Source: an uncultured virus (IMG/VR IMGVR_UViG_3300037493_005562) (lineage: Duplodnaviria; Heunggongvirae; Uroviricota; Caudoviricetes). From it: DNA of 64,000 nt. Positions 1,785 through 27,576 of this stretch are shown here, one piece after another; positions within the stretch are counted from its first letter, which is position 1; every line of letters starts with the position of its first letter. The notes below the pieces were generated by a model. That model saw nothing but the letters and a program-made list of their open reading frames with translations, did not search any database and had not been told where the DNA came from. The stretch is from the IMG/VR virus record IMGVR_UViG_3300037493_005562; one strand, written 5' to 3'. The position numbers were made by a program, and so were the translations under genes.

Positions 1785-1813
1785 AAGGTACTCGATACGG
1801 TTACGGGGCGCAA
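1785..1813 (-). promoter_or_regulatory. Sigma70-type promoter of tRNA array 1
   Basis: TTGCGC-N17-TACCTT; 27/28 nt identical (1788-1815) to the array-2 promoter (27505-27532). Confidence 0.8.
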
Positions 1814-2093
1814 GGCGACATCGAAAGAAAGTACATGTGTTGGCGATCGAAGCCGGAAAGTTCGCGTCTATACCGACAGGGGTGAGGGTAACGCTGAACA
1901 GGGGCCAGACACCCCCAGGCGTCACGATGAAGAACCCACGCGCTCCAGGATCTGGTGAGTAAACGGCAAAGGCCCCATCAGCGCCAAGGGCGTCGGAGCG
2001 CGTGTCCCAAGCCTCCCCGCACGTCTTCTGTCCTGTAAGGCTTGCTATCAGGCTTCGTAGCCACTCGACATCCTGGTTGATCATCCGCGTCTC

Positions 2094-3120
2094 CTACAGG
2101 TCGTAGATCGTGACCGGGATCCCCTGCGCAAGCAGCTCGTCCCGAATGATGGGCTCGATCAAGGTCCAGTCCCCGCCCGCGAGCCGCGACCGACATGTGC
2201 AGCAACCTTTTCGCAAAGGTCTACGAAGTAGTCCATGGTGTAGACATTCTTCATGATGTTGATGTGCTTGTGGACCCACTGGACATTACCTTCGACATAC
2301 CCGACGGAGCTGTCAATACGGTCCAGGGAGGCTGAGGTTCTGCTGTTCTTTCCGGCCGAAAAATTCAGGGGTTGACCCGAAAGAGCACAACGCTGCCCTT
2401 GCTTCTCAAAGAGGCCCCAGGCGTACTCCTTAGAGATAGCAAAGGCCAGTCCACGCTCCCTAGCGCGCAGCTCGTAACCTCTCCAGAAATTTGCCGAAAT
2501 TCCTTTGAATCCTTTGAACCCAGGATTGTTCTCCCCAGAATTTCGAGCGTACTGGTCTCGGCGACACCCACAGGATGTTGTTGCTCCCCTCTTCAGTGAG
2601 GGGGCAAGCACGGGGTGCTCCTCCTTCCCGCAGTTTAAGCACCTGCAAACTGCAAAATAAACGCCCCTTTTAGCTGCGTATTCAGTTTTGCCAACTTGCT
2701 CCATGCGCAGCACTTCGAGATATCCGAAGCGACGACCCGTCAAGTCTTCTAGCGGTGGCTTTCGATTGCGAGGGCGACACCCGCAACTGCTGCTAGTGCC
2801 CCGTCGCAGGTTTTCTGGGTAGTAGGTCTTGACGACTCCGCAATCACAACGACCCACTACGTGGTACAGCGAGCCTTTCTTTTCCATACCGATAGCCTCG
2901 ATCATACCAAAGCGCTGTCCGGTAAGATCCTTATGCGTCTGACCCATTACCCCCCCCCTGTGGAGTATGTTAACTCCGTCTTTCACGGGTGTACAGAGGG
3001 GTACCAGGGCGTGATGTTTGTAGACGCGTCGTTCACGATGTGCACGAGCACCATTGGCTTGGGCTTGCCGGGGGCGGCGAAGGGGTCGGTGGCGTCGCCG
3101 GTAAGGTAGGTGATGTTCAC
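2094..3120 (-). pseudogene. Macrodomain (Poa1p/TARG1-like) gene remnant split by an endonuclease gene
   Basis: N-terminus VNITYLTGDATDP...VLVHIVND (3120-3020) and C-terminus LAGGDWTLIEPIIRDELLAQGIPVTIYDL (~2185-2094); centre missing. Confidence 0.7.
2159..2947 (-). CDS. Homing endonuclease-like protein (two DLTGxRFG/CxC repeats plus HNH-like domain)
   Basis: DLTGQRFG..CDCG..SCGC repeated twice; SLDRIDSSVGYVEGNVQWVHKHINIMK. Confidence 0.8.
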   Translation of the reverse strand: MGQTHKDLTGQRFGMIEAIGMEKKGSLYHVVGRCDCGVVKTYYPENLRRGTSSSCGCRPRNRKPPLEDLTGRRFGYLEVLRMEQVGKTEYAAKRGVYFAVCRCLNCGKEEHPVLAPSLKRGATTSCGCRRDQYARNSGENNPGFKGFKGISANFWRGYELRARERGLAFAISKEYAWGLFEKQGQRCALSGQPLNFSAGKNSRTSASLDRIDSSVGYVEGNVQWVHKHINIMKNVYTMDYFVDLCEKVAAHVGRGSRAGTGP

Positions 3121-3431
3121 TTCTTGACGCTCACGATGTCCCGTTGCGGCCGACGGACAGCCGTGTGGAGATCGTTGAACAGCGAATTCATGGCGAGTTC
3201 GTCGGTGGTTGCTGCCCCCATGTCTTCTGTGAAGCCAGAGCCGTGTGTGTTGGTCCACGACTCCCAAAGGCCGGTCCTCGTGTTGATGGTCAACGAGCCG
3301 CCGTGGTGGCTGCTAGGAGGTCGTCGACCTAGAGAGGCCCACGCCCGCTCTTCGACGATGCGGAGACACTCATCGAGCGAGACTTCAACGTCCACGTTGT
3401 GTTGGGTGACAGAGGCTTTGGTGCGCGGCAT
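3117..3431 (-). CDS. Hypothetical protein
   Basis: ORF in tightly packed operon, RBS-like GGAG. Confidence 0.6.
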   Translation of the reverse strand: MPRTKASVTQHNVDVEVSLDECLRIVEERAWASLGRRPPSSHHGGSLTINTRTGLWESWTNTHGSGFTEDMGAATTDELAMNSLFNDLHTAVRRPQRDIVSVKK

Positions 3432-3764
3432 TTAGGCTCCCTGCTGAAGGATGTACAACACGTCGCTGAGCGCGGTCGTGACCTCGCCGATGGCGTAAGT
3501 GCGTCCCGGGTCCAAAGGATGTGCCTTGACCCTCTGAACAAACAGCGTGTGATGTCCAGGTGTACGTTGACGTTTGAACGTGAAGCCCTGCACCGTTACG
3601 CTGTCGCCCACAACAAGGCCGTATAGCACTTCGCGTTCGAACAGGTAGATTTCGTCGGGGCTCATCTTCTTAGGAACCCAACGCAACCCAGGCTGAGCAG
3701 AAGATGCTGCCACCCCGTCCATAACATCCGCGTCGTCGCCGTCGTTTCGACCGTGCCCACTCAT
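3432..3764 (-). CDS. Hypothetical protein
   Basis: AAGGAG RBS before MSGHGRND. Confidence 0.6.
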   Translation of the reverse strand: MSGHGRNDGDDADVMDGVAASSAQPGLRWVPKKMSPDEIYLFEREVLYGLVVGDSVTVQGFTFKRQRTPGHHTLFVQRVKAHPLDPGRTYAIGEVTTALSDVLYILQQGA

Positions 3765-3798
3765 CGTTGCTCCTTGAAACTGGTAGAGGGATCTCCCG

Positions 3799-4512
3799 TC
3801 ACTTGGCGTAATCGTCGCAGATGATCGCCGACCCAACGAACTTCGGACCCTCGTACAGGTTGATGACACGGCTCACGTGGGCCAAGTGCTTGTGCGGCGC
3901 GTTGGGTACCAGGAAGCGGATCGAACAGGGGATGCTGTCCCCGAGGGTCTTCTCACCCTCGTTGTCCTCATCGAAGTCGAGATGCACCGACCACATCTCA
4001 TCGTTCACGAGGGTCGTGCAGGCGTACGACGCTCCAGACACGGGTGTCTTCCGACCCCCTTCGGCCAGGAACGTGACCCGGGCGGGGGCTGCGCAGAACG
4101 TCATCAGCCACGCAGTGTCTCCGTAGGGTTTGTCGTCCTTCGTGAGCGGGATCGTGTCCGCGGCCATTCGCAACATCGCGCGCCAGGACAAACGCTCGTC
4201 CTGCTTTTCGAGCATCCTCGAAGTGTGCGCCTTCATCTCGAACGTGCCCGTGGCGAAGAGCTTGAAGAGCAGCAGCGTCTCGAACTGGAGAAAGCCACAG
4301 GTGTAGGCGATCCACAGGAGCACGCCCCGGTACCCGTCCGTCTTCGGGTCCCGCAGCAGCTTCGAGATCGCCCGGTCCAGGGCCCTGCCCTGGGTCTCGT
4401 CCCCGGTTTCCAGGTACTCGTCCATCAACGAGATGGCGGTCTCTTTCCGGGTGGCGGGGTCGTCCGTGGACAGAAGGAGGGTGATGCGAGGATCTGGATC
4501 GGAACTGTTCAC
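3799..4512 (-). CDS. Hypothetical protein
   Basis: GTGA start/stop overlap with upstream gene; GC3-biased codons. Confidence 0.6.
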   Translation of the reverse strand: MNSSDPDPRITLLLSTDDPATRKETAISLMDEYLETGDETQGRALDRAISKLLRDPKTDGYRGVLLWIAYTCGFLQFETLLLFKLFATGTFEMKAHTSRMLEKQDERLSWRAMLRMAADTIPLTKDDKPYGDTAWLMTFCAAPARVTFLAEGGRKTPVSGASYACTTLVNDEMWSVHLDFDEDNEGEKTLGDSIPCSIRFLVPNAPHKHLAHVSRVINLYEGPKFVGSAIICDDYAK

Positions 4513-5720
4513 TTCGTGCCTCCTAGAACCCGAATCGAAGTTCCGACACGAGGCCACGCACCGTTGCGCGCGACACCGTGCTCGATCTGGTCGCGGGCGT
4601 TGTCTTTGTCCGTCCCCAAGTACAGATGCCTTGGATCACAACACCCGGCACTCCCGCGCCCGCAACGGTGGAGTACGTGGATCCTTGGGGGGACCTCACC
4701 CACATAGAGAGTGTACGCGAGTCGATGGGTCAAATAGCTCTGGCCCCTATAGTTGAGGTAGCCGTACCCCGCGCTGTGCTTCTTGCCTGTGTACACGAGG
4801 CACCCTTCTGGATCTACAGCGCATTCTCGACGTAACCGTTCAACCAGGACAGCTTTGTCGGTGTCCGAAAGAAGCAACGGCTTCGCAGGCTCCTTTTTAC
4901 GGGGCCCGGTCGGGGCCTCGACCGGCGTTTGAGGCTTGTCGAGTTCGCCGCGTACGATACAGCCCACGACGTTGCCGGACAGGCCGTACTTGCGACCCAA
5001 GCTCCGGTGCGACTGGATAGGGTCTATCACATATTCCGCCTGGATGGCCCGACGCGTCTCTTCAGGTACTTTGGTTTCCCCACGGCGCGACTCGATCTTC
5101 CGACGCTCTCCCCGACGGAGCCTCGAAATGTTCTTCTGCGATGTTCCCCATTTTTTGGCGAGAACGGATGCTGGTTCCTGAGACGTACGAATATCGTTAA
5201 CCGCCTCGACGGAAAGCTCGGCGCGTCGCGGAAGCGGATCGGGCAGGTGCCAATACGTTGTTCCGTTCAGGGCACGAGCCATCGAAGATATAGCAACACC
5301 CGCTTCTCGCGCGAGGTCTCCGACGCGGACATTCTCGTCCCGGTATCTTCGACGTGCTTCAGTGACAGCCTCGTCGGTCATCTTTGCTCGACCGGCTCGC
5401 TCTCCGGGGGGTCGAGGAAGACGTCCGCGCTCAACGCAATCGCGCATGTTGTCTACTGCGGTACCCAGTTCCAAGTGCTCGACGTTGACGCACACTGGAC
5501 GATCGCACTTGTGACGTAGGTAAAGTCTCTTGTCTGGCTTGGGACCATGACGCTGTTCCCACAGGATACGTGCGACCTTGATGCCTCCTTGGGGGCCCGG
5601 TATACGACCGTACCCCCAATCGTCGACGTAACCCGTCCAGTCGTGGCACGCGGTACCGAGCCTTGGGTGGATGGGTCCCTCGGTGTTGATGAGCGAAGCC
5701 ACATCAGAGGACGTCTTCAC
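4509..5720 (-). CDS. HNH endonuclease with two HNH domains flanking HTH-like repeats
   Basis: CHDWTG..GYG..RHKCDRPVCVNVEHLELGTAVDNMRD and CLVYTG..GYG..HRLAY..LHRCG..CCDPRHLYLGTDKDNARD. Confidence 0.85.
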   Translation of the reverse strand: MKTSSDVASLINTEGPIHPRLGTACHDWTGYVDDWGYGRIPGPQGGIKVARILWEQRHGPKPDKRLYLRHKCDRPVCVNVEHLELGTAVDNMRDCVERGRLPRPPGERAGRAKMTDEAVTEARRRYRDENVRVGDLAREAGVAISSMARALNGTTYWHLPDPLPRRAELSVEAVNDIRTSQEPASVLAKKWGTSQKNISRLRRGERRKIESRRGETKVPEETRRAIQAEYVIDPIQSHRSLGRKYGLSGNVVGCIVRGELDKPQTPVEAPTGPRKKEPAKPLLLSDTDKAVLVERLRRECAVDPEGCLVYTGKKHSAGYGYLNYRGQSYLTHRLAYTLYVGEVPPRIHVLHRCGRGSAGCCDPRHLYLGTDKDNARDQIEHGVARNGAWPRVGTSIRVLGGTK

Positions 5721-6025
5721 GTACGCACCGCTCCCTCGGGAACAAACGCCTCGGGCTTCACGACCCGAAACGTCAGTCGGTCCGCGACGCCCGCGTGATC
5801 GACACACACCAACGCCGCAGCTTTTACGGGCTGCAACAGACGCAGCGCGTGATCCAGAGCCGCGTGTTCGTCCTTGTGAACGCCGTTCACTTCGCAGTAG
5901 CGCGCGAACTGCTCCTCCGCGGGCTCGGGCGGACCCGGCTGCGTAATCTGCCAGAAGGCGTACCTCGTTCCCGTGTCGTTGTAGTCCGCGAGGTCGAGCA
6001 ACTCGATCCAAAACCCCTGTGTCAT
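5717..6025 (-). CDS. Hypothetical protein
   Basis: AGGAGAAGG RBS; operon packing. Confidence 0.6.
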   Translation of the reverse strand: MTQGFWIELLDLADYNDTGTRYAFWQITQPGPPEPAEEQFARYCEVNGVHKDEHAALDHALRLLQPVKAAALVCVDHAGVADRLTFRVVKPEAFVPEGAVRT

Positions 6026-6065
6026 TTTCCTTCTCCTGATTCAGAGTCCCAACTTGTGTAAAGGG

Positions 6066-6682: not shown

Positions 6683-6722
6683 GTCATCTCCTTAGGGTGG
6701 ATCGTGGCTTCATCAGAACGGG

Positions 6723-7304
6723 TCAAGGCTTCATCTCCAACTCGGCCTTGCCCAACGCGATCCCGAGTCGCATCAGGGCCAGGAAGTCCCCGTCGACCAA
6801 GTCGGCCTCGACCTGGACCACGACCTCGTCCGCGGTTCTGCCTGTGACGAAATACTCCATCTTACTGTCGGGCGGGTAGTACCCGACGTAGGTGGCCCGA
6901 AGTTGCTTGACCTTTGGGAGAGGGCGAGTCTGTTCGCCCTCTCGAACGTGCTTGGAGCAAACAGGCAGGACGCGGCGATCGGTTACGGCGCGCATGAGAA
7001 ATGCTGGAGCCCCGCACAAATACCCAGGTTCGGGAGCCACGACCGCGCCACATCGGCCGACGGAGTCCTCCTCCGTGTCGACGACGTCCACGCGCCACGC
7101 ATACCGCGACACTTGTGAGAACGGGGACCCGTACGGTCCGCCGTCACACTCCTCGCAAGGGTGTGATTGACGCTTCTGACCGGACTCCACCGTACATTCC
7201 CCGTCCATGTTGCCGTACTTGCACCCGTGCCGCTTGCAGCAGTGCTCAGTGTGGACGTCCCGGTTGGCCTCGTCTTCGGGCTCGAACTTGATGGGGTAGG
7301 TCAT
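6723..7304 (-). CDS. Hypothetical protein with Cys/His metal-binding motif
   Basis: DVHTEHCCKRHGCKYG..C..CEEC. Confidence 0.65.
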   Translation of the reverse strand: MTYPIKFEPEDEANRDVHTEHCCKRHGCKYGNMDGECTVESGQKRQSHPCEECDGGPYGSPFSQVSRYAWRVDVVDTEEDSVGRCGAVVAPEPGYLCGAPAFLMRAVTDRRVLPVCSKHVREGEQTRPLPKVKQLRATYVGYYPPDSKMEYFVTGRTADEVVVQVEADLVDGDFLALMRLGIALGKAELEMKP

Positions 7305-8044
7305 CGCGTTTCTCCCAAGAAATACGCCTTGGCAACTTGCAGCACGTGCTGCTTACGACTCTCCAAGTCGGGCGACCAGAGCGGTCTCACGATCTGCGCC
7401 CCGCTGTCCACCAGGAGGCCGCGCAGGAGCACGTCGTAGCGCCAGTGGTACATCGGGTCGGGCACGCGCGCCGGGTCGTCCCCGAGCCACTGCCCCGCTG
7501 CCAGGGGGGTGTAGAAGATCACGTCGTAGAGATCCAAGTGCGCGTACGCCCGTTCCTTGAACTCCGCGTCCACCACATCCGGCGCGTGCATCAGTGTGTA
7601 CGCGAGGTCGTCGAGCGTCGTGCGGTCCGTGACGAAGCCAGTGGCTCCGGCAGGTGCTTGGCTCTCGACGTTGACGGGGTGTCGCTCCCACTCGATCTTC
7701 TTCGCCTGGAGCTTCTTCTGGAACAGAGAGCGCACCGTCGGGACGTTGTGTGGGTCGCCCCCACTTTCCCGAATGTTCCGAAGGATGTAGGGGTCGTCGA
7801 AGTGGACCCGGGAGATCCCAGCGGCGTACTCCGCGTCTCCGTTCCGCAGACCGTTCTCGTAGCTTGAGAGGAACGCACGATCCACGGCGTACGGGTCGCC
7901 GTCGCCCTTCTCGTTGACGAACCCCATCTCCTTCGCCATGGAGCGCGAGCCGTGCGGGTTGATCAACAGGTTGAACTGCTCCGCGAGGTACTTGGTGAGG
8001 GTTGTCTTTCCCGTCGCGGAAGCGCCAGCAAAAGCGATTTTCAT
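7301..8044 (-). CDS. P-loop kinase/ATPase, NadR/AAA_28-like
   Basis: IAFAGASATGKTT; FVTDRTTLDDLAY; YDVIFY. Confidence 0.75.
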   Translation of the reverse strand: MKIAFAGASATGKTTLTKYLAEQFNLLINPHGSRSMAKEMGFVNEKGDGDPYAVDRAFLSSYENGLRNGDAEYAAGISRVHFDDPYILRNIRESGGDPHNVPTVRSLFQKKLQAKKIEWERHPVNVESQAPAGATGFVTDRTTLDDLAYTLMHAPDVVDAEFKERAYAHLDLYDVIFYTPLAAGQWLGDDPARVPDPMYHWRYDVLLRGLLVDSGAQIVRPLWSPDLESRKQHVLQVAKAYFLGETR

Positions 8045-9411: not shown

Positions 9412-9905
9412 GGGGTCTCCTTGGTCACGGTGTAGAGCCGACCAAGAACCTCGCCCAAACCGAAACTCGAAGCGATGTACCCGTCATCCCGTTTCCACGT
9501 GCCGAGCTGAGTCTTGGTGAAGTACGCTGCGATCGGCCACGAGCGATCCACGTCCGCGTTCAGGTCATCCAGGCAGGCCAGCTTCGTCCCGACAGGCAGG
9601 GCGCGCAGCTCTCCCTCCGTACAGATACACCGAAAGCCGACAAGCTCTGCGGGAAGGCCGTATTTGTGTTCTCGGACGTTGAGATCGTCGGATTCGAGAG
9701 CCTGCTCCCGTTCCCACGCATGGAACGCGAGCATCAAAGGCTCGATGGCCTCGCCCATGAAGGGGCCGTCATAGCCCGTGTCCCGCAGAAACTTCAGTTC
9801 GTCGACGACCTTGCGCAAGCGCAGGACTTCGCTCGCAAGCTCCTGGGACTCGGTCCCGCCGAAGCGTTCGAGGATCAGCAGACGGTCGTTGGTCAGCGCC
9901 GACAT
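9408..9905 (-). CDS. Hypothetical protein
   Basis: Operon packing, GGGAG RBS. Confidence 0.55.
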   Translation of the reverse strand: MSALTNDRLLILERFGGTESQELASEVLRLRKVVDELKFLRDTGYDGPFMGEAIEPLMLAFHAWEREQALESDDLNVREHKYGLPAELVGFRCICTEGELRALPVGTKLACLDDLNADVDRSWPIAAYFTKTQLGTWKRDDGYIASSFGLGEVLGRLYTVTKETP

Positions 9906-10657
9906 AGCTGCTCCCATCGCGCGACCGTCGCCTCGGTGTAGGGCAACGAGCCCAAAGCGTAGTTTCCAAGCGCATATTGATCGTTGACTTCGACCAGGAG
10001 CGTTTTACCTTCCTTCGTGACGCCGACGTCGAGCCCGTACGCGACCGGAGCCGACCTGTACGCCTTGATCATCTGAATCACGGTCGCCTTGTCGGGGAGG
10101 ATCCAGTTGTCACCGTAGTACCGGTGGATCCCCAACAACGCCCCTTCATGCACGAAGCACCGGTACTCGGACACGAAGTCCACGAGCCCCGACACCCAGA
10201 CGGGCATCTCTTTGTCGACGTTCGAGGTCTCGGCCAAGTCACGAAACCGCTCGATCGTATGGCCCGTGAACATCTTGTGCTCCACGGGCTTGATGAACAC
10301 CGGCTTGATGTGCTCGGGCTTGGCCTCGTCTTCGATGAAGGCTTTGTGAACCTCCCCGAGCGTCGAGCGTCGGATCTCACGACCGAACCACGGAGTCAGC
10401 TCCTCGGGGTAGTCGAGCGGCGGGGGGATCGGAACACCGATCTGACGAAGTGTGTCGTGAACCGTCTTCACCCACCCGTGAACGAGCGTAGTCGCATCGA
10501 TGTCCAGGTGGTTGAACACGCGGGGGTCGAGCTGGCACGCCTGGAAGCCTTCCGGGCGCAGACCCAGGAACCGAGCCCCCTCCCACAGGGCGTACCCGCA
10601 CGGGGCCACGGGCATGCCGTCTTCGCCGAGCTGGATGTAGACTTTCTTGACGGTCAT
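9893..10657 (-). CDS. ATP-grasp domain protein (R2K/DUF4343-like)
   Basis: DYPEEL..GREI; PVFIKP..KMFTG; FVSEYRCFV; AYGLDVG..LLVEVND. Confidence 0.8.
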   Translation of the reverse strand: MTVKKVYIQLGEDGMPVAPCGYALWEGARFLGLRPEGFQACQLDPRVFNHLDIDATTLVHGWVKTVHDTLRQIGVPIPPPLDYPEELTPWFGREIRRSTLGEVHKAFIEDEAKPEHIKPVFIKPVEHKMFTGHTIERFRDLAETSNVDKEMPVWVSGLVDFVSEYRCFVHEGALLGIHRYYGDNWILPDKATVIQMIKAYRSAPVAYGLDVGVTKEGKTLLVEVNDQYALGNYALGSLPYTEATVARWEQLCRR

Positions 10658-12048: not shown

Positions 12049-12332
12049 GTCGTCTTCCTGGCGAGCAACGTCGCGCGCATCTCATCGAGGCTCGCTCGTG
12101 CGCGATTGCTGACCTCGGGCCCGAAGAGTTGTTTCGGATCGAGCGGTGTCCGGTCACCGAAGCTCTCGACCCACACGAGGAGATCCGCCTCGACTGCTTC
12201 GGGGAGACGACTGAAAACCTGTTCCGTGATACGCGGGTTCTCGTGGCAGTGCATCACGACGAGCGAATAGGCGTACTGCCGAGGTCCTCGCTCGATCTCC
12301 TCCAGCAGCCATGTGGCCTTGTCTTGTCTCAC
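12045..12332 (-). CDS. Hypothetical protein
   Basis: Start/stop overlaps on both sides. Confidence 0.5.
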   Translation of the reverse strand: MRQDKATWLLEEIERGPRQYAYSLVVMHCHENPRITEQVFSRLPEAVEADLLVWVESFGDRTPLDPKQLFGPEVSNRARASLDEMRATLLARKTT

Positions 12333-12829
12333 GTTCGACCCCGTGGATGGAGAATCGCGTCGATGACTTCTGAGAGACTGGAGAGAATGGTGGGACCCGG
12401 GAAAAGGGTCGGGCGCGCCAACGCCGTCTGCGTCACAACGTCAAACCGCCGGGAGTAATTCGGGTGTGCGCCGAGGATCAGCGTTTTCGTAGTCATCGAC
12501 CACGCGCCCAACTCGTAAAGCGCGATGGGGCAGACCGTCTCTTCCGGAAACCAGAACACGATCACGTCCGCGACGCGAAGCATCCGATGCTCCCAGCGGA
12601 TCTGGGCCTCGGCCAGCGTCGGGTCGTCCAGCTTGAAGCTCTTCCGCCGGGGGTTGATCAGGGTCAGGCGTTTGTTGGCCCAGTCGTCTTCCCGGCACTG
12701 GGTCACAACCTCGGCCTGCCAGTCGGGACAACCCGTGATCCCGCCCGCGAGGAAGATGCTCGTGCGCGCATCCGGCGATACCCCGGAGCCCGCATACTCA
12801 GTGGGGCATTCGATGTATTGCAGGCTCAT
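12329..12829 (-). CDS. Nucleoside 2-deoxyribosyltransferase-like protein
   Basis: SIFLAGGITGCPDWQ..INPRR..QIRWE..ADVIVFWFP..CPIALYELG. Confidence 0.85.
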   Translation of the reverse strand: MSLQYIECPTEYAGSGVSPDARTSIFLAGGITGCPDWQAEVVTQCREDDWANKRLTLINPRRKSFKLDDPTLAEAQIRWEHRMLRVADVIVFWFPEETVCPIALYELGAWSMTTKTLILGAHPNYSRRFDVVTQTALARPTLFPGPTILSSLSEVIDAILHPRGRT

Positions 12830-13311
12830 CGAGAAGACCCGTCGTGACACACTTCCCGCAACGCAAGCAATTCCTTTGTCCGCTCGAAGGCTTCCGACTC
12901 ATACGCGAACAACTCAGCGGGGGGCTCGCTGTAGCTAGCCACCCGATACTGCGCCGACGCCGGAACGTACTCGACAGATACTTTCGGGACGCCTCCCACA
13001 AGCACCACAACGCCGTTGAAGTGTCCAGGGAGGCTAAGAGACACGTCCCCCTCCGGACCGCGACGAACGAGGGCGTAGAACATCGAAAAGCCACCCGTCT
13101 TCGGGCCCCGAATGTCCACCGGTTCCATTCGTAGAACCTCACTCCAAGGTGGCTCCTCCGGGGGGGCTGTTGGTGAAGTCCAGTTGATGGGGGCCAACCA
13201 GCGGCCCCCGCTCTGGGTCACGCCCACGGCCGCGAGCGACGAACCGCCGCTCTTCCAGTACACGGTGTAGAGGCCGGGATTGATGTTCCGGAACGGGGAG
13301 GTGTCGATCAT
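12826..13311 (-). CDS. Hypothetical protein
   Basis: ATGA overlaps; GLYTVYWKSGGSSLAAVG motif. Confidence 0.55.
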   Translation of the reverse strand: MIDTSPFRNINPGLYTVYWKSGGSSLAAVGVTQSGGRWLAPINWTSPTAPPEEPPWSEVLRMEPVDIRGPKTGGFSMFYALVRRGPEGDVSLSLPGHFNGVVVLVGGVPKVSVEYVPASAQYRVASYSEPPAELFAYESEAFERTKELLALREVCHDGSSR

Positions 13312-13658
13312 GACTTCTTCCTGTGGTCGCCGCGTTCGATCTCTTTGGCGAAACTCCCGCCGTAGTGGTCCCACAAATAGACCAGGGTTGCCTCCTTCTC
13401 GGTCTCGATCTCGCCACGGAGACGTTCAACCTCTGCGAGCAGGTAGGTGAGGTCGGCGGGAGCATTGGCGATCAACGCCGCGTGTGCGTGACCCTTCTCG
13501 TCCCCAGGAAGTCCTTCCTCGACCGTACATACGGACCAGGGATCTCCTGGGGCGTCCCTGTCCACGACTTCAACATCGCAAAGGTTACGGGGGTCTACGT
13601 GCCACGGGCCCGGTACCACGGCCGCAAGCCGTGACTTGATGTCGTCGATTCGGTTCAT
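13308..13658 (-). CDS. Ead/Ea22-like protein (paralog of 11587-12048)
   Basis: IKSRLAAVVPGPW..ALIANAPADLTYLLAEVERL; shared C-terminus IE.GDHRKK. Confidence 0.65.
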   Translation of the reverse strand: MNRIDDIKSRLAAVVPGPWHVDPRNLCDVEVVDRDAPGDPWSVCTVEEGLPGDEKGHAHAALIANAPADLTYLLAEVERLRGEIETEKEATLVYLWDHYGGSFAKEIERGDHRKKS

Positions 13659-21054: not shown

Positions 21055-21102
21055 GGTAGGGGGGGGCAGGGGTGCGCTCCCCCCTCCCTTATAAAGTCGT
21101 GC

Positions 21103-21131
21103 TTGACAAGTGTATCCGGTTCGGTTACATA
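21103..21131 (+). promoter_or_regulatory. Promoter TTGACA-N17-TACATA with operator
   Basis: GTATCCGGTTCGGTTAC. Confidence 0.7.
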
Positions 21132-21156
21132 GAGTACGAACCCCGGAGCCGAAACC

Positions 21157-21837: not shown

Positions 21838-21852
21838 GAGAGTCACCACCCC

Positions 21853-23502
21853 ATGATCTCTAGCTTGAAAATTACGGATCGCTCCGCTGCTCCCTGCCCC
21901 TGGTGGGGAGCCGTCACCGGGCTTCGCGACCAAACCGGTTTTGACTTCAAGCCGGGTGTAAACGTGATTGTCGGCCCTTCCGGGTCTGGACGCAGCACCC
22001 TGCTCCGAAGCATCGCACGTCTGCTGCACGCGGAAGACGGCGTGAGCGTCGTGAACAGTCAATCCGTGAGCAAGCTGGAGAAGTGGGAGCATACGGCGTC
22101 TTCAAACCGCCTCCAGTTGGGGGCAACCCTTAACTTCGACGGCAAGGCGGTGATCTACCTCGACCACCTGAACAAGCTGTCGGCAACGTCGGGGAGCGGC
22201 CCTGTCCGGCGCCGCCTCGAATACGTTCTCAAGGCTCTCAAAACGCAAGAGGCCCCGGAGATCAAGTGGGACTGGCTTTCCAGAAACATTGTGGTCCCTC
22301 CAGCCTCCCCCACGTACGCGACAACGGCGGCGATGACCTACCAAGAGAAGGAGAGGGCGAAGGTCGAGTCGATCTCGAACTCCCTGGTAGGGACGATCGA
22401 GGTGGGGCAGCCCACGCTGCTGATCGATAACATCCCCGGCATCTCGTTCCTCAACTCGATGTTCTTGTGGGATGAGATGCTCCGCGCGTCGGACAAATTG
22501 CAGATCATCACCGCACTTGACTCGCCGTGGGCGCTCTGCGCAGATCCCGACGTGAACCACATCGAACTGGTTCCAGGCTACCTCGACGTGTGCCGTGCAG
22601 GGCTCGCCTTTCTGAAGACATGCGCTCCAAGCGCCGAGGAGATCCGCAACGTACACGCGGAGGCGGTCTACGATGAGTGGAAGGCAACGGTTGTCGAAAC
22701 CACCATGGAAAAGCTGAATCTGACGAACATCGGAAACTCCGGGTACAGCCACAACCAGATCGGCTACTCGTCGTCGTCGTCCGCCCCTCCGTCGCCCCCG
22801 ACTCCCGCCGCCCCTTCGCGGACGAGCACTTGGAGAGACGAATGGGAATCAGCCGTCTACGATACCTCCCATCGCACGTCCACCACGACGTACGCAGGCA
22901 AAGGGAGATCCAAGACGTCCGAGGTCGTGCAGGGTTTCGAGATGAAAGATGCGGAGGTAGGTATCGCAGAGCCTTGCCCGTCTGCCATTCAAGAGACAAA
23001 GAAGAAAGCGGCAGCGGGGGCGAAGACGAAAGCCGCTCCCACGCCCACGGAGCTGCCTCCTGTGTCCGCGCTCGTGGCGGCCCTCCCGAAACCTCCGGTG
23101 GTTCCTGCCACACCTGTCGCAAACAACGACCCCCTCTCTGGGATCCGGAACTATATGCCGGACTGGTCTGTGAGCGACATCATCGCCATTCAAACGGAAC
23201 TCACGCGGCTGCGCTACTACGCGTTCAAGATCGACGGGAGTCTTGGGCACAACACGCAGCGGGCCCTTTTCGCGGCGTACGAAAACTCCGGTTGGAAGTA
23301 CATGGGCGCGGTAGCGATTCTTTCGTACCTCAAGAACAGCGCTCCTCTCGGACCAGAGCCCGCCCCCCTTACTGCCACGCCGCCCGCTCCCGGGGCCGCG
23401 GGCGAAAGGACGCCCAGACCTTCGGTACTCATCGACATCGAGGGTGGGATCGACGAACTCGATGAGCTGGAGCTGTCCGCCCGCTACGGGTGGTGCTCAT
23501 GA
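21853..23502 (+). CDS. Degenerate ABC/AAA_21-type ATPase fused to a peptidoglycan-binding-like domain
   Basis: FKPGVNVIVGPSGSGRST; LLIDN; C-terminal IQTELTRLRYYAFKIDGSLGHNTQRAL. Confidence 0.6.
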   Translation: MISSLKITDRSAAPCPWWGAVTGLRDQTGFDFKPGVNVIVGPSGSGRSTLLRSIARLLHAEDGVSVVNSQSVSKLEKWEHTASSNRLQLGATLNFDGKAVIYLDHLNKLSATSGSGPVRRRLEYVLKALKTQEAPEIKWDWLSRNIVVPPASPTYATTAAMTYQEKERAKVESISNSLVGTIEVGQPTLLIDNIPGISFLNSMFLWDEMLRASDKLQIITALDSPWALCADPDVNHIELVPGYLDVCRAGLAFLKTCAPSAEEIRNVHAEAVYDEWKATVVETTMEKLNLTNIGNSGYSHNQIGYSSSSSAPPSPPTPAAPSRTSTWRDEWESAVYDTSHRTSTTTYAGKGRSKTSEVVQGFEMKDAEVGIAEPCPSAIQETKKKAAAGAKTKAAPTPTELPPVSALVAALPKPPVVPATPVANNDPLSGIRNYMPDWSVSDIIAIQTELTRLRYYAFKIDGSLGHNTQRALFAAYENSGWKYMGAVAILSYLKNSAPLGPEPAPLTATPPAPGAAGERTPRPSVLIDIEGGIDELDELELSARYGWCS

Positions 23503-24545
23503 CGATCGGGGAAGTCCGACTCCGCATCGTCACGGCAAACAGTGGGCCTGCAAGGGCACGGGCTATCGTGGCTCCGTGGCAGTACGAAAGAGGCTTGCCA
23601 ACAAAGACATATCTCGTACAAGCTCGGCTCCTGGCTCTCCCCCCTGACGATCCCTTCGCCTCGTGGACTGACCTGTGTTTCGTAAGAGAGACACACCCCA
23701 TGCCCTCCCTCCGACAATCCCCCACGAGTACCCCCAGGGCCTCAAGGTGGTACGCAACAAACTCGTACGGGGAGAGCCTTACAGCGGCGCAGCTAAGTGC
23801 CAAGACGGCTGCGTCTTTGGGGTACGACACCCTTCTGCCGTCGGCTCAAGCCGAAGCTCGCCGGAAGCGTTCTGCCCTGATGTACCCGTGGACCTCCGGA
23901 GAAGGTAGTGCCGCTTGCCAACTCCGCTACTCCACTACTCAGTATCGAAGGAGCGTGTTCCGCATCTTGCAACGCTACGGCGCGTGCGTGTCGATGCGCA
24001 ACAGCATCGAGCTTCTGACGTACAGGAGTCAGGAAGTGGTGTTTGGAAATACCATCCGGTTCATAGCCGTCCTCACTCCAGACGCAAATGGTCCCGTAGA
24101 GACATACGGTTCGGGAGATACAGAGCAGAAAGAGTGCTCCTTCGTTTCGGAGCGTATGAATAACGAGCTTTCCGCGCTGTGGGCGCACTACCAGAAGGCT
24201 CAGGGCGCCGTTCCGGAAGCGTTCGTCGCCCCTCCCCCGCACCTCATGGCTATGCGCCTGCATTCCGAAACCGTTGTGGAGGCGGAGGCGTTCCCGTTCC
24301 GCATGTCCACAACAGGCGTGCCGGAACGCATCTTCACAGGGGCCTCTCCCAACCCCTTCGCAGGGACCTCTCCCAGCCCCTTCGTGTTCGAGGACGACGA
24401 GAACGAGAACGACGAGAACGAGAACGAAGACGACGAGAACGAGAACGAAGACGACGAGATCGAAGTCGTCGGAGACGCGAGCGCAACCCTCCGGCAAAGT
24501 CTCATCGACGTCCTCGTCAACAACCCCAGTCGGGGGAACCGGTAA
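23499..24545 (+). CDS. Hypothetical protein with acidic (EDDENEN)n tail
   Basis: ATGA overlap; repeat at ~24390-24460. Confidence 0.6.
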   Translation: MTIGEVRLRIVTANSGPARARAIVAPWQYERGLPTKTYLVQARLLALPPDDPFASWTDLCFVRETHPMPSLRQSPTSTPRASRWYATNSYGESLTAAQLSAKTAASLGYDTLLPSAQAEARRKRSALMYPWTSGEGSAACQLRYSTTQYRRSVFRILQRYGACVSMRNSIELLTYRSQEVVFGNTIRFIAVLTPDANGPVETYGSGDTEQKECSFVSERMNNELSALWAHYQKAQGAVPEAFVAPPPHLMAMRLHSETVVEAEAFPFRMSTTGVPERIFTGASPNPFAGTSPSPFVFEDDENENDENENEDDENENEDDEIEVVGDASATLRQSLIDVLVNNPSRGNR

Positions 24546-24550
24546 GAAAC

Positions 24551-24636
24551 GGCGGACACGGAGGGACTCGAACCCCCAAAGGCTTTCGCCCACGCTCGCT
24601 CTCAAGGCGAGTGCCTTACCTTTAGGCTACGTGCCC
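24551..24636 (-). tRNA. tRNA-Ser(TGA)
   Basis: CTCGC-CTTGAGA-GCGAG; long variable arm; G73. Confidence 0.88.
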
Positions 24637-24682
24637 ATGATGTCTGGGAGGGATGCGGTGCAAAACTGTGTTACAGCACCGA

Positions 24683-25189
24683 ATGTTCACCCTTACTCTC
24701 CCTTGGTTGGTCGTTGTGGCGTCACTGCTCTTGTGGCTTCCGCAGAACGCGGTTCACGAGGGGGCGCACTGTCTCGCACATAAGTATGCCGGGGACGAGA
24801 TCGTAAAGTTCTGGCCGTTCCCCTCTTGGGCCCTCGGGTCGTTCTCCTTCGCGTACATGAGCTACCGGAGGCGAACCCCCGTGTCCCCTCACCTGGACGG
24901 ATTCTGCGCAGCAGCCCCTCAGATCGTGAACACGTGCGTCCTCGCCCTGCTCATCCCGCTGCACTTCATCTCCCTTCCGCCCTGGTTGTTCTCGATCTGC
25001 GCCGCGTTGGTGATCGTGAACTTCGCAGACGGAGCCGTCAACCTGGGCACGTTCTACCGGTCGACGCCTCGTCCCACGGACGGGTGGACCTGGGCAGCCC
25101 TGTGGAAGCTGCCCACTTGGGGTTGCCGAGCCTTCGCGGTGACGTGGCACCTCCTGTTTGGTGCTCACGTCGCAGCTTTTCTGCTGTAA
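24683..25189 (+). CDS. Membrane protein with HExxH motif (M50/DUF3267-like metalloprotease)
   Basis: VHEGAH; AAAPQ; several hydrophobic segments. Confidence 0.65.
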   Translation: MFTLTLPWLVVVASLLLWLPQNAVHEGAHCLAHKYAGDEIVKFWPFPSWALGSFSFAYMSYRRRTPVSPHLDGFCAAAPQIVNTCVLALLIPLHFISLPPWLFSICAALVIVNFADGAVNLGTFYRSTPRPTDGWTWAALWKLPTWGCRAFAVTWHLLFGAHVAAFLL

Positions 25190-25194
25190 CAAGA

Positions 25195-25285
25195 TGGCGG
25201 AGAAGGCGAGATTTGAACTCGCACGCGCCTTGCGACGCACACTCGTTTTCGAGACGAGGCCAATATCCAGTTCTGGCACTTCTCC
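25195..25285 (-). tRNA. tRNA-Ser(CGA)
   Basis: CTCGT-CTCGAAA-ACGAG; variable arm; GCCA end. Confidence 0.9.
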
Positions 25286-25289
25286 AAGA

Positions 25290-25377
25290 TGGCGGAGCGT
25301 GCAAGAGTCGAACTTGCCTGGGCTTTTATACCCGTAGCCAATTTAGCAAATTGGGTGCCCACCTCGGGCAACGCACC
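25290..25377 (-). tRNA. tRNA-Ser(GCT)
   Basis: CCAAT-TTGCTAA-ATTGG; variable arm; short D arm; GCCA end. Confidence 0.85.
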
Positions 25378-25384
25378 GTGTAAA

Positions 25385-25506
25385 TTCCTGCCGCCGAACT
25401 TCCACGTCTCGGCACGCCTCGGGGGCTCTCGCCCAGGCATCGCTGCCTTGCTTCCCGAGGCCGGGGATTCGAACCCCACTAAGTCCCCCGAAGAGGACGA
25501 CAAGAA
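25385..25506 (-). ncRNA. Circularly permuted tRNA-like RNA (YrlA/Y-RNA-like topology)
   Basis: Order: closing stem, variable-arm hairpin, T arm GGGG-TTCGAAT-CCCC, closed acceptor stem GCCTCGGG..CCCGAGGC, D arm GCCGA..TCGGC, closing stem. Confidence 0.65.
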
Positions 25507-25507
25507 A

Positions 25508-25597
25508 TGGCGGAGCGCGTGGGCCTCGAACCCACCAGGGCCTTTCGACCCCCCTCTGGCTTCCAACCAGTGCCGGTCCCCGGACCGGTTCCGCTCC
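25508..25597 (-). tRNA. tRNA-Ser(GGA), atypical 6-bp D stem with 4-nt loop
   Basis: CTGG-TTGGAAG-CCAG; D arm CCGGTC-CGGG-GACCGG; GCCA end. Confidence 0.8.
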
Positions 25598-25606
25598 ATG
25601 AAAGAA

Positions 25607-25733
25607 TCGACCTGACAAGTAGAACAGTCCGTTACCGCGTTCCAACACCTCTCCGAAGAGAGCGGCCTCGCCCGTAGCCGTTGTCCGCCCCGAAGGACGG
25701 AGAGGAAGTCGAATCCTCAAGTGTTCAAGTCGA
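25607..25733 (-). ncRNA. Circularly permuted tRNA mimic with UUCG-capped acceptor and anticodon stems
   Basis: T arm GAGGA-TTCGACT-TCCTC; TCCGTCC-TTCG-GGGCGGA; D arm CGGC..GCCG; CTCTC-TTCG-GAGAG; closed by AACAC/GTGTT and TCGACTTGA/TCAGGTCGA. Confidence 0.65.
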
Positions 25734-25735
25734 AG

Positions 25736-25817
25736 GGTGCCCCGTGCCGGGATCGAGTCGGCAAGTCTTTCGACGCTGGCGTCTAGGGCCAGTGCGTTTG
25801 CATTTCGCCAACGGGGC
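25736..25817 (-). tRNA. tRNA-Leu(TAG), degenerate T and D loops
   Basis: CTGGC-CCTAGAC-GCCAG; variable arm GTC-GAAA-GAC; T loop CTCGATC. Confidence 0.7.
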
Positions 25818-25826
25818 AAAGAGAAG

Positions 25827-25899
25827 CAGGGACGCTCGGACTCGAACCGAGATCACCAGATTTGGAGTCTAGTGGGTTAGCCATTACCTTCACGTCCCT
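25827..25899 (-). tRNA. tRNA-Trp(CCA)
   Basis: CTAGA-CTCCAAA-TCTGG; G73. Confidence 0.9.
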
Positions 25900-25904
25900 A
25901 CGAA

Positions 25905-25966
25905 TGGTGCGATCGGCGGGAATCGAACCCACACCCTTTCGGACGCGCCGACGTTGCGGAGCGTCC
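25905..25966 (-). pseudogene. 3' half of a class II (Leu-like) tRNA
   Basis: GTCC-GAAA-GGGT variable arm, GTGGG-TTCGATT-CCCGC T arm, CGATCGC-A-CCA; no adjacent 5' half. Confidence 0.6.
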
Positions 25967-25986
25967 ACGAACGGGGCCCTATCCCC

Positions 25987-26754
25987 CTAGACTTTACCTG
26001 CTCGCAGTTTAGTCCAATATCCCCGTGCTGGAAGAGCAATGCCTCGGCGTCTACACCGATGGGCGACTGCATTACCCGAAACCCCTAATTGTCGTGCGAT
26101 AACGCTTGGTGGAACCTGCCACACCTTTACCGCCAGTTCCGAATCTACAGGCCACTGAGCACGTTCCTTCCTTGGAGGGTTACACTGTGAGCAAGTACGG
26201 GAAGCTCGCTGCTTGGTATTCCCACACTCACACAAGGAAGGGAGAGCCCTCCGCCGAGTCTTCCTACCTGCGGGACCTACGCCGCCATCCGTGTTCGTCT
26301 GGGAATGGCAGTTAGGGCACACGAAGCGTAGATTCTCCGGCCGATTATCCCAAGCTTTTCCGTTGATATGGTCCACCTCCAGCCGTAGAGGCCGCCCATT
26401 CCAGAACGGTTGTAGCCCACACTCACTGCACTTCAACTCCCGCCCAATCTCGATAAGCTTGCGCCGAAGGAGAGCGCCACGACACGGCCGGGTCAACTCG
26501 GGCCCCACAACAAGGATCTCGTCGGGCCTACGATACGAAGGAGACTTGCGGGCACTCCACGGTAGTAGACCCCGTTGCTGGGCACCTTTCATGTGGCTCA
26601 CATCCAAGCCGTACCTAACGATCAATCGTTGAATGTGACCGTAGTTTCCCCCGGAGGCGCGGAGACCAAGTACCCTGAGTACCCCCGCGATTGAAGGGGA
26701 AGTCTTAACGACTGGAGCTAACAATTCTCTGGTGTACTTGGTAGTCTTGCCCAT
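25987..26754 (-). CDS. HNH homing endonuclease inserted in tRNA array 2
   Basis: KCSECG..WNG..LEVDHINGKAWDNRPENLRFVCPNCHSQT; own promoter TTGACG-N17-TACAGT. Confidence 0.9.
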   Translation of the reverse strand: MGKTTKYTRELLAPVVKTSPSIAGVLRVLGLRASGGNYGHIQRLIVRYGLDVSHMKGAQQRGLLPWSARKSPSYRRPDEILVVGPELTRPCRGALLRRKLIEIGRELKCSECGLQPFWNGRPLRLEVDHINGKAWDNRPENLRFVCPNCHSQTNTDGGVGPAGRKTRRRALPSLCECGNTKQRASRTCSQCNPPRKERAQWPVDSELAVKVWQVPPSVIARQLGVSGNAVAHRCRRRGIALPARGYWTKLRAGKV

Positions 26755-26791
26755 GACCGCACTGTATGCCAATACCAGAAATACGTCAAGG

Positions 26792-26868
26792 GGTGCCGTC
26801 GGGGGAACTCGAATCCCCACATTACTGCCGTCTCAGGGCAGCTCCTCTACCAATTGGGATACGACGGC
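26792..26868 (-). tRNA. tRNA-Leu(GAG), no variable arm
   Basis: CTGCC-CTGAGAC-GGCAG; 6-nt variable loop; A73. Confidence 0.88.
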
Positions 26869-26877
26869 GAACTAAAG

Positions 26878-26956
26878 GGTGCCCTCGCCCGGACTCGAAC
26901 CGGGACGTTAACTGGGTCTGAGCCAGCCTCCTCTACCAAGATTGGGATACGAGGGC
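26878..26956 (-). tRNA. tRNA-Leu(CAG), no variable arm
   Basis: GCTGG-CTCAGAC-CCAGT; 6-nt variable loop; A73. Confidence 0.88.
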
Positions 26957-26961
26957 ATGAA

Positions 26962-27054
26962 TGGTGGGCGGAGAGGGAGTTGAACCCCCAGAGTTTACCC
27001 GAATGGGACTGGTTTTACAGACCAGCGCGACCTACCGATAGTCGCCATCCGCCC
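26962..27054 (-). tRNA. tRNA-Tyr(GTA)
   Basis: CTGGT-CTGTAAA-ACCAG; long variable arm; ACCA end. Confidence 0.9.
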
Positions 27055-27061
27055 GTAACAG

Positions 27062-27135
27062 GGGTCAAGTCCAGGATCGAACTGGCTATTCTGCCTTTTC
27101 AGAGCAGCGAGGACACCGATGTCCTCCCCAAGACC
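27062..27135 (-). tRNA. tRNA-Phe(GAA), atypical
   Basis: CTGCT-CTGAAAA-GGCAG; two U-U mismatches in acceptor stem; C discriminator. Confidence 0.7.
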
Positions 27136-27143
27136 AAAGAAAA

Positions 27144-27219
27144 TGCGGACGGTCGGATTCGAACCGACAAACGAAGTCTTTTGAGGACCCCTGGTATACC
27201 AAGTTCCCTGCACGTCCGC
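27144..27219 (-). tRNA. tRNA-Leu(CAA), no variable arm; first gene of array 2
   Basis: GGGTC-CTCAAAA-GACTT; 5-nt variable loop. Confidence 0.85.
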
Positions 27220-27311
27220 GTGAAGTCGTCATCTTGATTCAGGATGTCAGAGATCGAGAAGCCGCTGCCAGGAACCGTTCCCTGCTTCGCCGCCCTCGAC
27301 CCTCTGGTCCC

Positions 27312-27356
27312 AAAAAGAGGAAACCCCCCTGGACCGTCGTGGTCGAGGGGGGTCCC
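27312..27356 (-). terminator. Attenuator terminator upstream of tRNA array 2
   Basis: GGACCCCCCTCGACC-ACGAC-GGTCCAGGGGGGTTTCC followed by TCTTTTT. Confidence 0.85.
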
Positions 27357-27375
27357 GTACCATCTGTCACGATGG

Positions 27376-27492
27376 CTACGTCGCCGCCCCCGGCGTCGAA
27401 AGCAGATAGGAACTCGACCATGAGCTATAAAAGCTCGTGGTGAGGGCCGTAAAGCTCTCGGACAGACGGGTGGTGGCGCGCAAGGTCTTCAT
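27376..27492 (-). CDS. Putative attenuation leader peptide of tRNA array 2 (38 aa, MKTLRATTRLSESFTALTTSFYSSWSSSYLLSTPGAAT)
   Basis: Starts ~9 nt below the -10 box; run of 13 S/F/Y/W/L codons; stop codon lies inside the antiterminator. Confidence 0.82.
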   Translation of the reverse strand: MKTLRATTRLSESFTALTTSFYSSWSSSYLLSTPGAAT

Positions 27493-27501
27493 GTTGCCTT
27501 G

Positions 27502-27530
27502 AATGTACTCGGTACGGTTACGGGGCGCAA
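27502..27530 (-). promoter_or_regulatory. Sigma70-type promoter of tRNA array 2
   Basis: TTGCGC-N17-TACATT; near-identical to the array-1 promoter. Confidence 0.8.
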
Positions 27531-27576
27531 GGGCGGCGCAAGAAAAAAGTGAGGGGTCGGCGTTCAATGCCATAAA

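Follow-up and report, generated by a model that had tools for sequence, protein, structure and literature searches.

How might a large phage decide when to transcribe its own transfer RNA (tRNA) genes? The question is raised by a stretch of 64,000 nucleotides (nt) of the virus record IMGVR_UViG_3300037493_005562, which we analyzed at its full length and refer to as the window, and in which two tRNA arrays stand behind near-identical copies of one promoter-like block. Phage tRNA genes are usually viewed as a fixed supplement to codon usage, or as decoys that divert the tRNA-cleaving defences of the host, and to our knowledge the control of their expression is essentially undescribed. All results reported here were obtained computationally, from sequence. 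We found that each array is preceded by a short reading frame whose codons mirror the tRNAs behind it, and that this frame is followed by a terminator-like hairpin with a T-rich tail. With moderate confidence, we propose that each array is an operon under ribosome-mediated (leader-peptide) transcription attenuation of the trp/his type, giving two feedback channels, and that each block would probably be switched on when its own tRNAs run short. The source is a large uncultured phage, the sequence of which is present in sediment metagenome DNA runs that continue past the start of the window. The contigs of one metatranscriptome cover a few genes and carry no signal on starts, ends or read-through at leader 1, so that they speak neither for nor against the proposal. 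The G+C content of the window is approximately 61%, and no near-identical record was found among 50,697 phage records.

We called tRNAs with ARAGORN at the default setting and then at the 90% and 80% thresholds, using Rfam as a second source. The default setting gave 22 tRNAs in the window, all 22 of them on the minus strand. Array 1, read from position 1407 to 43, contains 14 tRNAs for 11 amino acids (Arg x2, His, Asp, Lys x2, Pro x2, Glu, Met, Asn, Ile, Gln and Cys), and an incomplete fifteenth tRNA at 42 to 1, which best matches the 5′ halves of the Gln tRNAs of related phages, is probably also a tRNA for Gln. In array 2, eight tRNAs were called at the default setting, and Rfam together with ARAGORN at 90% added a fourth Leu tRNA (25738-25817) and a fourth Ser tRNA (25512-25597). 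This array is broken up by an HNH endonuclease gene, and by an open reading frame (ORF) on the plus strand (24653-25189) that lies before the last Ser tRNA. Two further elements of array 2 were weak, namely a Phe-like element (27062-27138), which was called only at the 80% threshold and remained without a match in Rfam at E values of up to 10, and a Thr-like element (25905-25985), which remained below threshold at 17.9 bits.

A preliminary description of this locus had placed the arrays about 23 kilobases (kb) apart, with no amino acid in common, and had concluded that the genetic code is split between them. The gap is indeed 23.1 kb, with both arrays on the minus strand. The absence of shared amino acids was confirmed for the visible tRNAs; however, array 1 runs past the start of the window, and both this statement and the idea of a split code are therefore valid only for the visible part. 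As a description of the whole code the split had to be given up, since no confident tRNA for Gly, Ala, Val, Thr or Phe was found in the visible window, in which 15 of the 20 amino acids are confidently covered, and since the relatives carry further tRNAs outside their two arrays.

Array 2 had also been described as a grouping of the classes with a long variable arm (Leu, Ser, Tyr) together with Phe and Trp. The four Ser tRNAs, the Tyr tRNA, one Leu tRNA and the Trp tRNA fit this description, whereas three Leu tRNAs are short and Phe is below threshold. More precisely, the Leu tRNAs measure 76, 77 and 81 nt in three cases and 84 nt in the fourth, and the Trp tRNA measures 74 nt. The array as a whole is not a class II (long variable arm) set, because three Leu tRNAs of 76-81 nt have no room for a long arm and only Ser x4, Tyr and one Leu are long; we therefore kept the long-variable-arm class as an organising principle only in part. 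Leu tRNAs of 70-81 nt, too short for the usual long variable arm, recur across the phage group, both in the window (26792-27219, minus strand) and in the relatives. We also considered the possibility that array 2 collects the tRNAs for codons starting with U. This idea was dropped, since Cys lies in array 1 and since three Leu tRNAs and one Ser tRNA of array 2 read other codons; it is also contradicted by relatives in which Phe and Trp belong to the other array.

At both arrays the same order is found, with the twin block followed by the short frame (leader 1 or leader 2), a hairpin 18-19 nt past its stop codon, the T-rich tail and the first tRNA. Leader 1 contains an in-frame ATG at about 1578, which gives an alternative version of 27 codons. 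We counted the leader codons that can be read by each array, applying standard wobble rules to the ARAGORN anticodons and taking long ORFs as the background. For leader 1, the own array can read 32 of 64 codons, compared with a background of 0.35 (P = 0.011), and the other array only 2 of 64, compared with a background of 0.18 (depletion, P = 3e-4). The reverse holds for leader 2, where array 2 can read 17 of 37 codons (background 0.18, P = 9e-5) and array 1 can read 5 of 37 (background 0.35, depletion P = 3e-3). Moreover, every anticodon has a cognate codon in its own leader (14/14 in array 1 and 10/10 in array 2), and such full sampling was reached in only 1.5% (leader 1) and 0.5% (leader 2) of 5000 draws of random windows of equal length from long ORFs. 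The shift into the other two frames left the match of leader 2 far behind (17 codons read, versus 1 and 8 of 36). The sensor run of leader 2 (Table 1) is the second-longest run of its kind over the six frames of the window; of the other seven runs of at least eight codons, six are Ser-only or Ser/Phe repeats. The Trp tRNA of the window belongs to array 2, and a Trp codon is present in leader 2 and none in leader 1.

To relate these features to other phages, we searched for relatives through RNA ligase loci, the gene for this enzyme lying between the two arrays, and scanned whole records for tRNAs. The nearest relatives by RNA ligase (50-56% identical) are jumbo phages, comprising uncultured IMG/VR contigs of 100-460 kb, Caulobacter phage CcrSC, Salicola phage SCTP-2 and Ralstonia phage RsoM2USA. 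CcrSC was rejected as a model, because despite an RNA ligase identity of about 53% it has no tRNA feature within 20 kb of the ligase. The layout, consisting of a loose array, the RNA ligase and a tight array along the direction of transcription, is kept in three near-complete IMG/VR phages (G001, G002 and G004) and in two partial ones (G003 and G006). In the tight arrays of these five relatives, none of the 22, 20, 20, 28 and 26 tRNAs is for Leu, Ser or Tyr; the loose arrays hold all tRNAs of these three types (14/26, 9/22, 10/24 and 11/27). Random assortment of isotypes, named beforehand as the result that would speak against a meaningful split, was accordingly not seen for Leu, Ser and Tyr. 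The split into Leu, Ser, Tyr, Phe and Trp versus the rest was upheld in this part only, since Phe and Trp tRNAs are in the tight array in G001, G003, G004 and G006. Nor is the proposed set exact, because the loose arrays also carry Gly, Ala, Pro and some Val, Thr, Ile and Cys tRNAs.

Every array of these relatives is headed by a short frame (40-45 codons in tight arrays and 28-33 in loose arrays) that ends 0-32 nt before a strong hairpin. In the nine leaders that were first examined (the two of the window, two each of G001, G002 and G004, and one of G003), codons read by the own array were enriched in all nine (P from 0.03 to 6e-6). When the leaders of G006, of the more distant G010, which has three arrays, and of SCTP-2 were added, the own array read the most leader codons, compared with any other array of the same genome, for 16 of 16 leaders. 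For example, in SCTP-2 the numbers for the own versus the other arrays were 23 versus 6 and 7, 20 versus 4 and 2, and 15 versus 1 and 6; in G010 they were 9 versus 8 and 4, 30 versus 2 and 10, and 18 versus 1 and 1. The cultured Salicola phage SCTP-2 (MF360958.1, 296481-309200, locus L086) has three leader-hairpin units with near-identical hairpins, each of which stands before a small tRNA block, and each leader mirrors the isotypes of its block. The leaders also co-vary with array content: the relatives' tight arrays keep Phe and Trp tRNAs and their leaders hold Phe and Trp codons, and three Ile codons occur in the leader of one loose array that carries Ile tRNAs. In the dense tRNA cluster of Sinorhizobium phage Phosso, no clear leader units were detected by a crude finder.

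These results bear on the possibility that the frames are ordinary small phage genes with their own promoter and terminator, the arrays being transcribed by constitutive leak or from unrecognised promoters and the codon match being a by-product, for example of unusual composition constraints on small proteins. We regard this explanation as unlikely. Although units of a small ORF and a terminator are common in phages, leader composition follows the array behind it in all 16 cases and shifts when tRNAs change arrays, and one leader of 39 scored codons is wholly without Leu, Ser, Tyr and Ala. The leader peptides of the relatives' tight arrays align with one another (and, more loosely, with the N-terminus of window leader 1), sharing some sequence order as a real protein would; in contrast, the leaders of the loose (Leu/Ser/Tyr) arrays are similar in composition and have hardly any sequence in common, and leader 1 has no match to a PHROG family. 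The spacing downstream of the hairpins is also relevant. About 90 nt separate tail 2 from the first tRNA of array 2, which would suit a separate gene, whereas the 18 nt between tail 1 and the first tRNA of array 1 leave no space for a separate promoter, and promoter scans listed no promoter-like site in the interval from hairpin to array at either leader.

The putative start signal of both operons is the twin block. The preliminary description had reported heads identical at 27 of 28 nt, which was confirmed: the 28-mer has exactly two matches, at 1788-1815 and 27505-27532, and none of 100 shuffled sequences contained any match. The conserved block is in fact 38 nt long, the flanks of the two copies are unrelated, and no third copy exists in the 64-kb window at up to three mismatches. 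In addition, the assembly graph of one DNA run jumps from one twin copy to the other, which is independent evidence of the repeat. The similar upstream A-tracts that had been noted correspond to short T-runs preceding both copies when read in the direction of the tRNAs. The hexamers (TTGCGC, 17 nt, then TACCTT or TACATT) agree with the sigma-70 consensus at only 3/6 and 3-4/6 positions. An exact scan for the twin core found nothing in viral_contigs, and the seven loci obtained in metagenome_contigs were rejected as chance matches within unrelated coding sequence, with no extended match. A motif common to the upstream regions of both leaders of one genome was detected in the window (38 nt, score 28 versus a shuffle maximum of 12), in G001 (32 nt, score 16 versus 12.5) and in G002 (21 nt exact, 21 versus 12). 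No such shared motif was detected in G004 and G006. The AT-richer relatives have a TATA-rich motif some 20-75 nt ahead of their frames, and the window block differs from it in sequence. The proposal of separate attenuation behind twin start signals is supported in silico in that each array has its own frame, hairpin and codon match in a layout that recurs in relatives.

We then evaluated the hairpins. Hairpin 1 has a folding energy of -36.5 kcal/mol (z = -4.8), and none of 200 shuffled sequences was as stable; the T-rich tails of hairpins 1 and 2 are 12 nt each and alike. A simple terminator scan listed neither leader hairpin. In an attenuator of the trp/his type, a segment near the end of the frame should be able to pair with the 5′ arm of the terminator, and candidate segments of this kind are present in both leaders (Table 1). 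We computed a pairing matrix between the last 16 codons of the nine leaders and the nine terminator 5′ arms. The own leader-arm pair was the best in its column in six of nine cases, and the mean excess of the diagonal was reached by 2 of 20,000 permutations. Both window leaders were best in row and column, at -19.0 kcal/mol for leader 1 and -19.5 kcal/mol for leader 2 (next in column, -12.0 kcal/mol). For seven of the nine leaders, the best partner of the terminator 5′ arm lies inside the last 11 codons of the own leader.

The hairpin might instead be a conserved RNA element with another role. It could direct the processing of the tRNA precursor or stabilise it from its 5′ end, or it could be bound by a phage antitermination or RNA-binding protein; the frame may then modulate it differently or even inversely, with efficient translation promoting read-through. 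This would account for a degree of conservation that a generic terminator does not require (a C-GAAA-G loop in eight of nine hairpins and a TCTGG motif in several tails), for the T-poor tails of some Leu/Ser/Tyr-array leaders in relatives, and for a further stretch of about 50 nt that the relatives conserve between hairpin and array. However, the window hairpins consist of long GC stems and T-rich tails, resembling the terminator that follows an ordinary gene near 29628-29650, hairpin 2 has no GAAA loop, and the complementarity of each hairpin arm to the end of its own frame is what an attenuator predicts; we therefore judge another role to be quite unlikely. It is very unlikely, in our view, that the split and the twin block are mere history (local duplication, an inherited layout, and recent duplication or gene conversion of the twin), because, although adjacent isoacceptors (Ser x3, Leu x2, Lys x2 and Arg x2), the synteny of loose array, RNA ligase and tight array common to G001, G002 and G004, a twin spacer identical as after recent copying, and homing HNH genes within and beside the arrays all agree with it, the leader frames, their complementary codon content and the terminator pairing are left unexplained, the leader-array match persists although gene order within arrays is heavily shuffled among relatives, and such a history may be true of the origin of the split while attenuation also holds.

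The DNA itself shows the twin block, both frames with their codon match, the hairpins and the conserved layout, and together these suggest how attenuation would proceed. Transcription would start at or near the twin block, and the short leader, written in the codons of the tRNAs behind it, would be translated. When decoding is fast, the ribosome would reach the end of the frame and cover its last codons, so that the hairpin forms and transcription stops before the tRNA genes. Scarcity, lack of charging or damage of the cognate tRNAs would slow decoding; the end of the frame would then stay uncovered and could pair with the hairpin's 5′ arm, so that the polymerase enters the array. The new tRNAs would then restore the decoding speed and the gate would shut again. 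Two complementary leaders and arrays would in this way form two separate feedback loops behind one common start signal, in essence the two-channel sensor of the preliminary description, which had suggested that it may reflect the specificity of different host tRNases. We infer from the features listed above that the block is active as a promoter, that the frames are translated, that the hairpins terminate transcription, and that an antiterminator switch operates and responds in the direction described. A broader idea, which seems to us as likely to be right as wrong, is that large phages run their tRNA supply as autonomous homeostats, in which a mini-gene samples every anticodon and any loss reopens exactly the block that replaces it. 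Such a loss could follow from shut-off of the host, from codon mismatch or from an anticodon nuclease of the host. The window would then be a two-channel system, and its relatives, including SCTP-2, would have two to three or more channels.

Several observations weigh against attenuation. The support for it is computational throughout. A simple sigma-70 scan listed neither twin copy, the match to the consensus being poor, and a gap of 3 nt separates copy 2 from the ATG of leader 2, so that either the mRNA would be leaderless or the twin block itself would be transcribed. Hairpin 2 (-31.1 kcal/mol) has a z of only -1.4 in its GC-rich stretch, with 23 of 200 shuffled sequences as stable. Taken individually, the pairings of the candidate antiterminator segments were no better than those of shuffled sequences (segment 1, -23.7 kcal/mol, z = 0.3; segment 2, -19.4 kcal/mol, z = -1.2), and the loose-array leader of G002 showed no antiterminator pairing. 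Leader 1 is long, at 65 codons, half of them are unread by the visible array 1, and its frame control was weak (31 codons read, versus 23 and 30 of 63 in the other frames). The unread codons of leader 1 are Thr, Val, Ala or Gly codons in 26 of 32 cases, and leader 2 has eight Thr and four Ala codons without a confident tRNA, although four of these Thr codons would suit the weak Thr-like element. Among the relatives, the tight-array leader of G002 has three Phe codons and one Trp codon while its array yielded no call for a Phe or Trp tRNA, and the enrichment in the tight-array leader of G001 is marginal (P = 0.03 and 0.07). Finally, the leaders of G006, G010 and SCTP-2 were picked by hand, as the strongest hairpins at array heads from longer lists, which may flatter the count of 16/16, and the relatives share a common ancestry and are therefore not independent trials.

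If the rule that a leader mirrors its array holds, the 26 unread codons of leader 1 predict array content, namely that Thr, Val, Ala and Gly tRNAs lie past the window edge in the unseen continuation of array 1. Attenuation of this kind would mean that a virus gauges decoding speed codon by codon and responds with the matching tRNA set; for the first time in leader-peptide attenuation, the molecule that is sensed would itself be the regulated product. It would also explain the sorting of jumbo-phage tRNA genes into blocks, and the leaders would be compact natural sensors of tRNA availability. Because the cultured phage SCTP-2 has the same layout, the idea is directly testable.

Amino-acid operons of enterobacteria are controlled by leader-peptide attenuators, among them trpL, hisL, leuL and pheL and the multivalent thrL and ilvL. 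The window units are similar to the trpL/hisL type in having a promoter-like block, a short frame rich in regulatory codons and an intrinsic-type terminator just past the stop codon, as well as a candidate segment near the end of the frame that is able to pair with the terminator 5′ arm, and they are similar to thrL and ilvL in that several amino acids would be sensed together. Unlike in enterobacterial attenuators, the genes that would be regulated are tRNA genes and not genes for biosynthetic enzymes, and the product would thus act directly on the sensor. The leaders also differ in covering at least 11 isotypes (leader 1) or 4-5 (leader 2), with nearly every anticodon represented once or more and no run of a single codon; moreover, they are phage-borne and present in two or more complementary copies per genome. 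The pheST attenuator of E. coli, with its pheM leader, is a case of leader-peptide attenuation of a gene of the translation apparatus; it concerns a synthetase gene, a single amino acid and a cellular genome, whereas the window has viral tRNA genes. T-box riboswitches (RF00230) bind uncharged tRNA directly and need no translation. They resemble the proposed system in having a leader that senses tRNA status and a terminator/antiterminator switch before translation-related genes, but no T-box covariance match was found with Rfam in 1-30000 or 24400-27560 (E up to 1 and 10).

Enterobacterial leader-peptide attenuators are treated in PMC1183508 and PMC3082878. According to a report on mycobacteria (bioRxiv 10.1101/834739), leaderless polycysteine short ORFs act as attenuators. 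If the twin block is a promoter, leader 2 would be similar to these in being a sensing ORF at the 5′ end of the transcript; the mycobacterial system reportedly senses cysteine for operonic protein genes, whereas the window leaders face tRNA arrays. Xanthomonas phage XacN1 is a jumbo phage with dozens of clustered tRNA genes, and the main text of its description contains no mention of leader, attenuat-, terminator or promoter and does not describe control of the array (PMC5852040). Full-text searches of literature outside subscription journals yielded no paper in which tRNA genes, of phages or of other genomes, are described as being under leader-peptide attenuation.

The coordinates of the features are summarized in Table 1. 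The RNA ligase gene between the arrays is compatible with a theme of tRNA repair, although it proves nothing. Three genes beside it, of ATP-grasp R2K, nucleoside 2-deoxyribosyltransferase-like and AAA_28 type, may act on nucleotides or in RNA repair. The three HNH genes look like homing endonuclease genes, which may mobilise tRNA blocks or change their order; the larger of the two near array 1 encodes 500 amino acids with two HNH-type stretches. Other phage-type genes of the window encode a Dda-like helicase, whose best identity among named phages is only about 28%, and a large protein with a lysin domain. No relatives of the protein encoded upstream of array 2 (27577-28629) were found in viral_contigs.

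Table 1. Positions of the arrays, their upstream elements and other features in the window, and of two elements in related phages
Feature	Position	Strand	Remarks
tRNA array 1	1-1407	minus	14 tRNAs (43-1407) and an incomplete 15th (1-42); runs past the window start
Terminator-like hairpin 1	1426-1465	minus	core 1438-1465, GAAA loop; T-rich tail 1426-1437; tail ends 18 nt before first tRNA
Candidate antiterminator segment 1	1493-1521	minus	last codons of leader 1, complementary to hairpin 1 5′ arm
Leader 1	1495-1692	minus	GTG start, 65 codons and stop; GAGG about 10 nt upstream; third-position G+C (GC3) 0.82
Twin block copy 1, 38 nt	1778-1815	minus	promoter-like; -35-like hexamer 1808-1813, 17 nt spacer, -10-like hexamer 1785-1790
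HNH endonuclease genes	2159-2986 and 4509-6011	minus	just upstream of array 1 head
AAA_28 P-loop gene	7301-8044	minus	beside RNA ligase, between arrays
ATP-grasp R2K-type gene	9893-10657	minus	beside RNA ligase, between arrays
Nucleoside 2-deoxyribosyltransferase-like gene	12329-12850	minus	beside RNA ligase, between arrays
RNA ligase gene	13655-14749	minus	phrog_24030 (E 8e-119), PF09414; between arrays; synteny anchor to relatives
tRNA array 2	24551-27219	minus	10 confident tRNAs: Leu x4, Ser x4, Tyr, Trp
HNH endonuclease gene, within array 2	25987-26820	minus	phrog_10822 (E 3e-41); own sigma-70-like site 26789-26761
Terminator-like hairpin 2	27312-27352	minus	core 27324-27352; T-rich tail 27312-27323; no GAAA loop
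Leader 2	27376-27492	minus	ATG start, 38 codons and stop; with the twin block as promoter, the mRNA would be leaderless or almost so
Candidate antiterminator segment 2	27385-27420	minus	within leader 2 end
Sensor run, leader 2	27397-27435	minus	13 consecutive codons, only Ser, Phe, Tyr, Trp and Leu; five different Ser codons
Twin block copy 2, 38 nt	27495-27532	minus	-35-like hexamer 27525-27530, -10-like hexamer 27502-27507
DNA methyltransferase-like gene	40321-40953	minus	
Transposase-like gene	48391-49752	plus	phrog_506 (E 1e-100)
Post-terminator element of about 50 nt, relatives	L065 about 3560-3640; L061 about 4690-4770		same place in L058, L066 and L072
Amber-reading tRNAs, relatives	G001 258611-258769; G002 124199-124272 and 126682-126759; L075 (G006); PV764938.1 about 446731		

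A few minor observations were made in the course of this analysis. In the relatives, arrays of both types have the conserved element of about 50 nt between the terminator of the leader and the first tRNA; it begins with GGACCGCGA and ends with GAGTGCGA, followed by a few bases and then AAAGG. It has no Rfam match and was not found in the window, and no Rfam family was found for a relative's leader. The relatives also carry, apart from their main arrays, one or two tRNAs each with an anticodon complementary to the amber codon (labelled Pyl by ARAGORN), which may be suppressor tRNAs; none was seen in the window. Next to the last Ser tRNA of the window, a short-period repeat (24389-24457) encodes a run of 23 Ser/Phe residues in one minus-strand frame, and this repeat falls inside the 3′ end of a plus-strand ORF (23490-24545).

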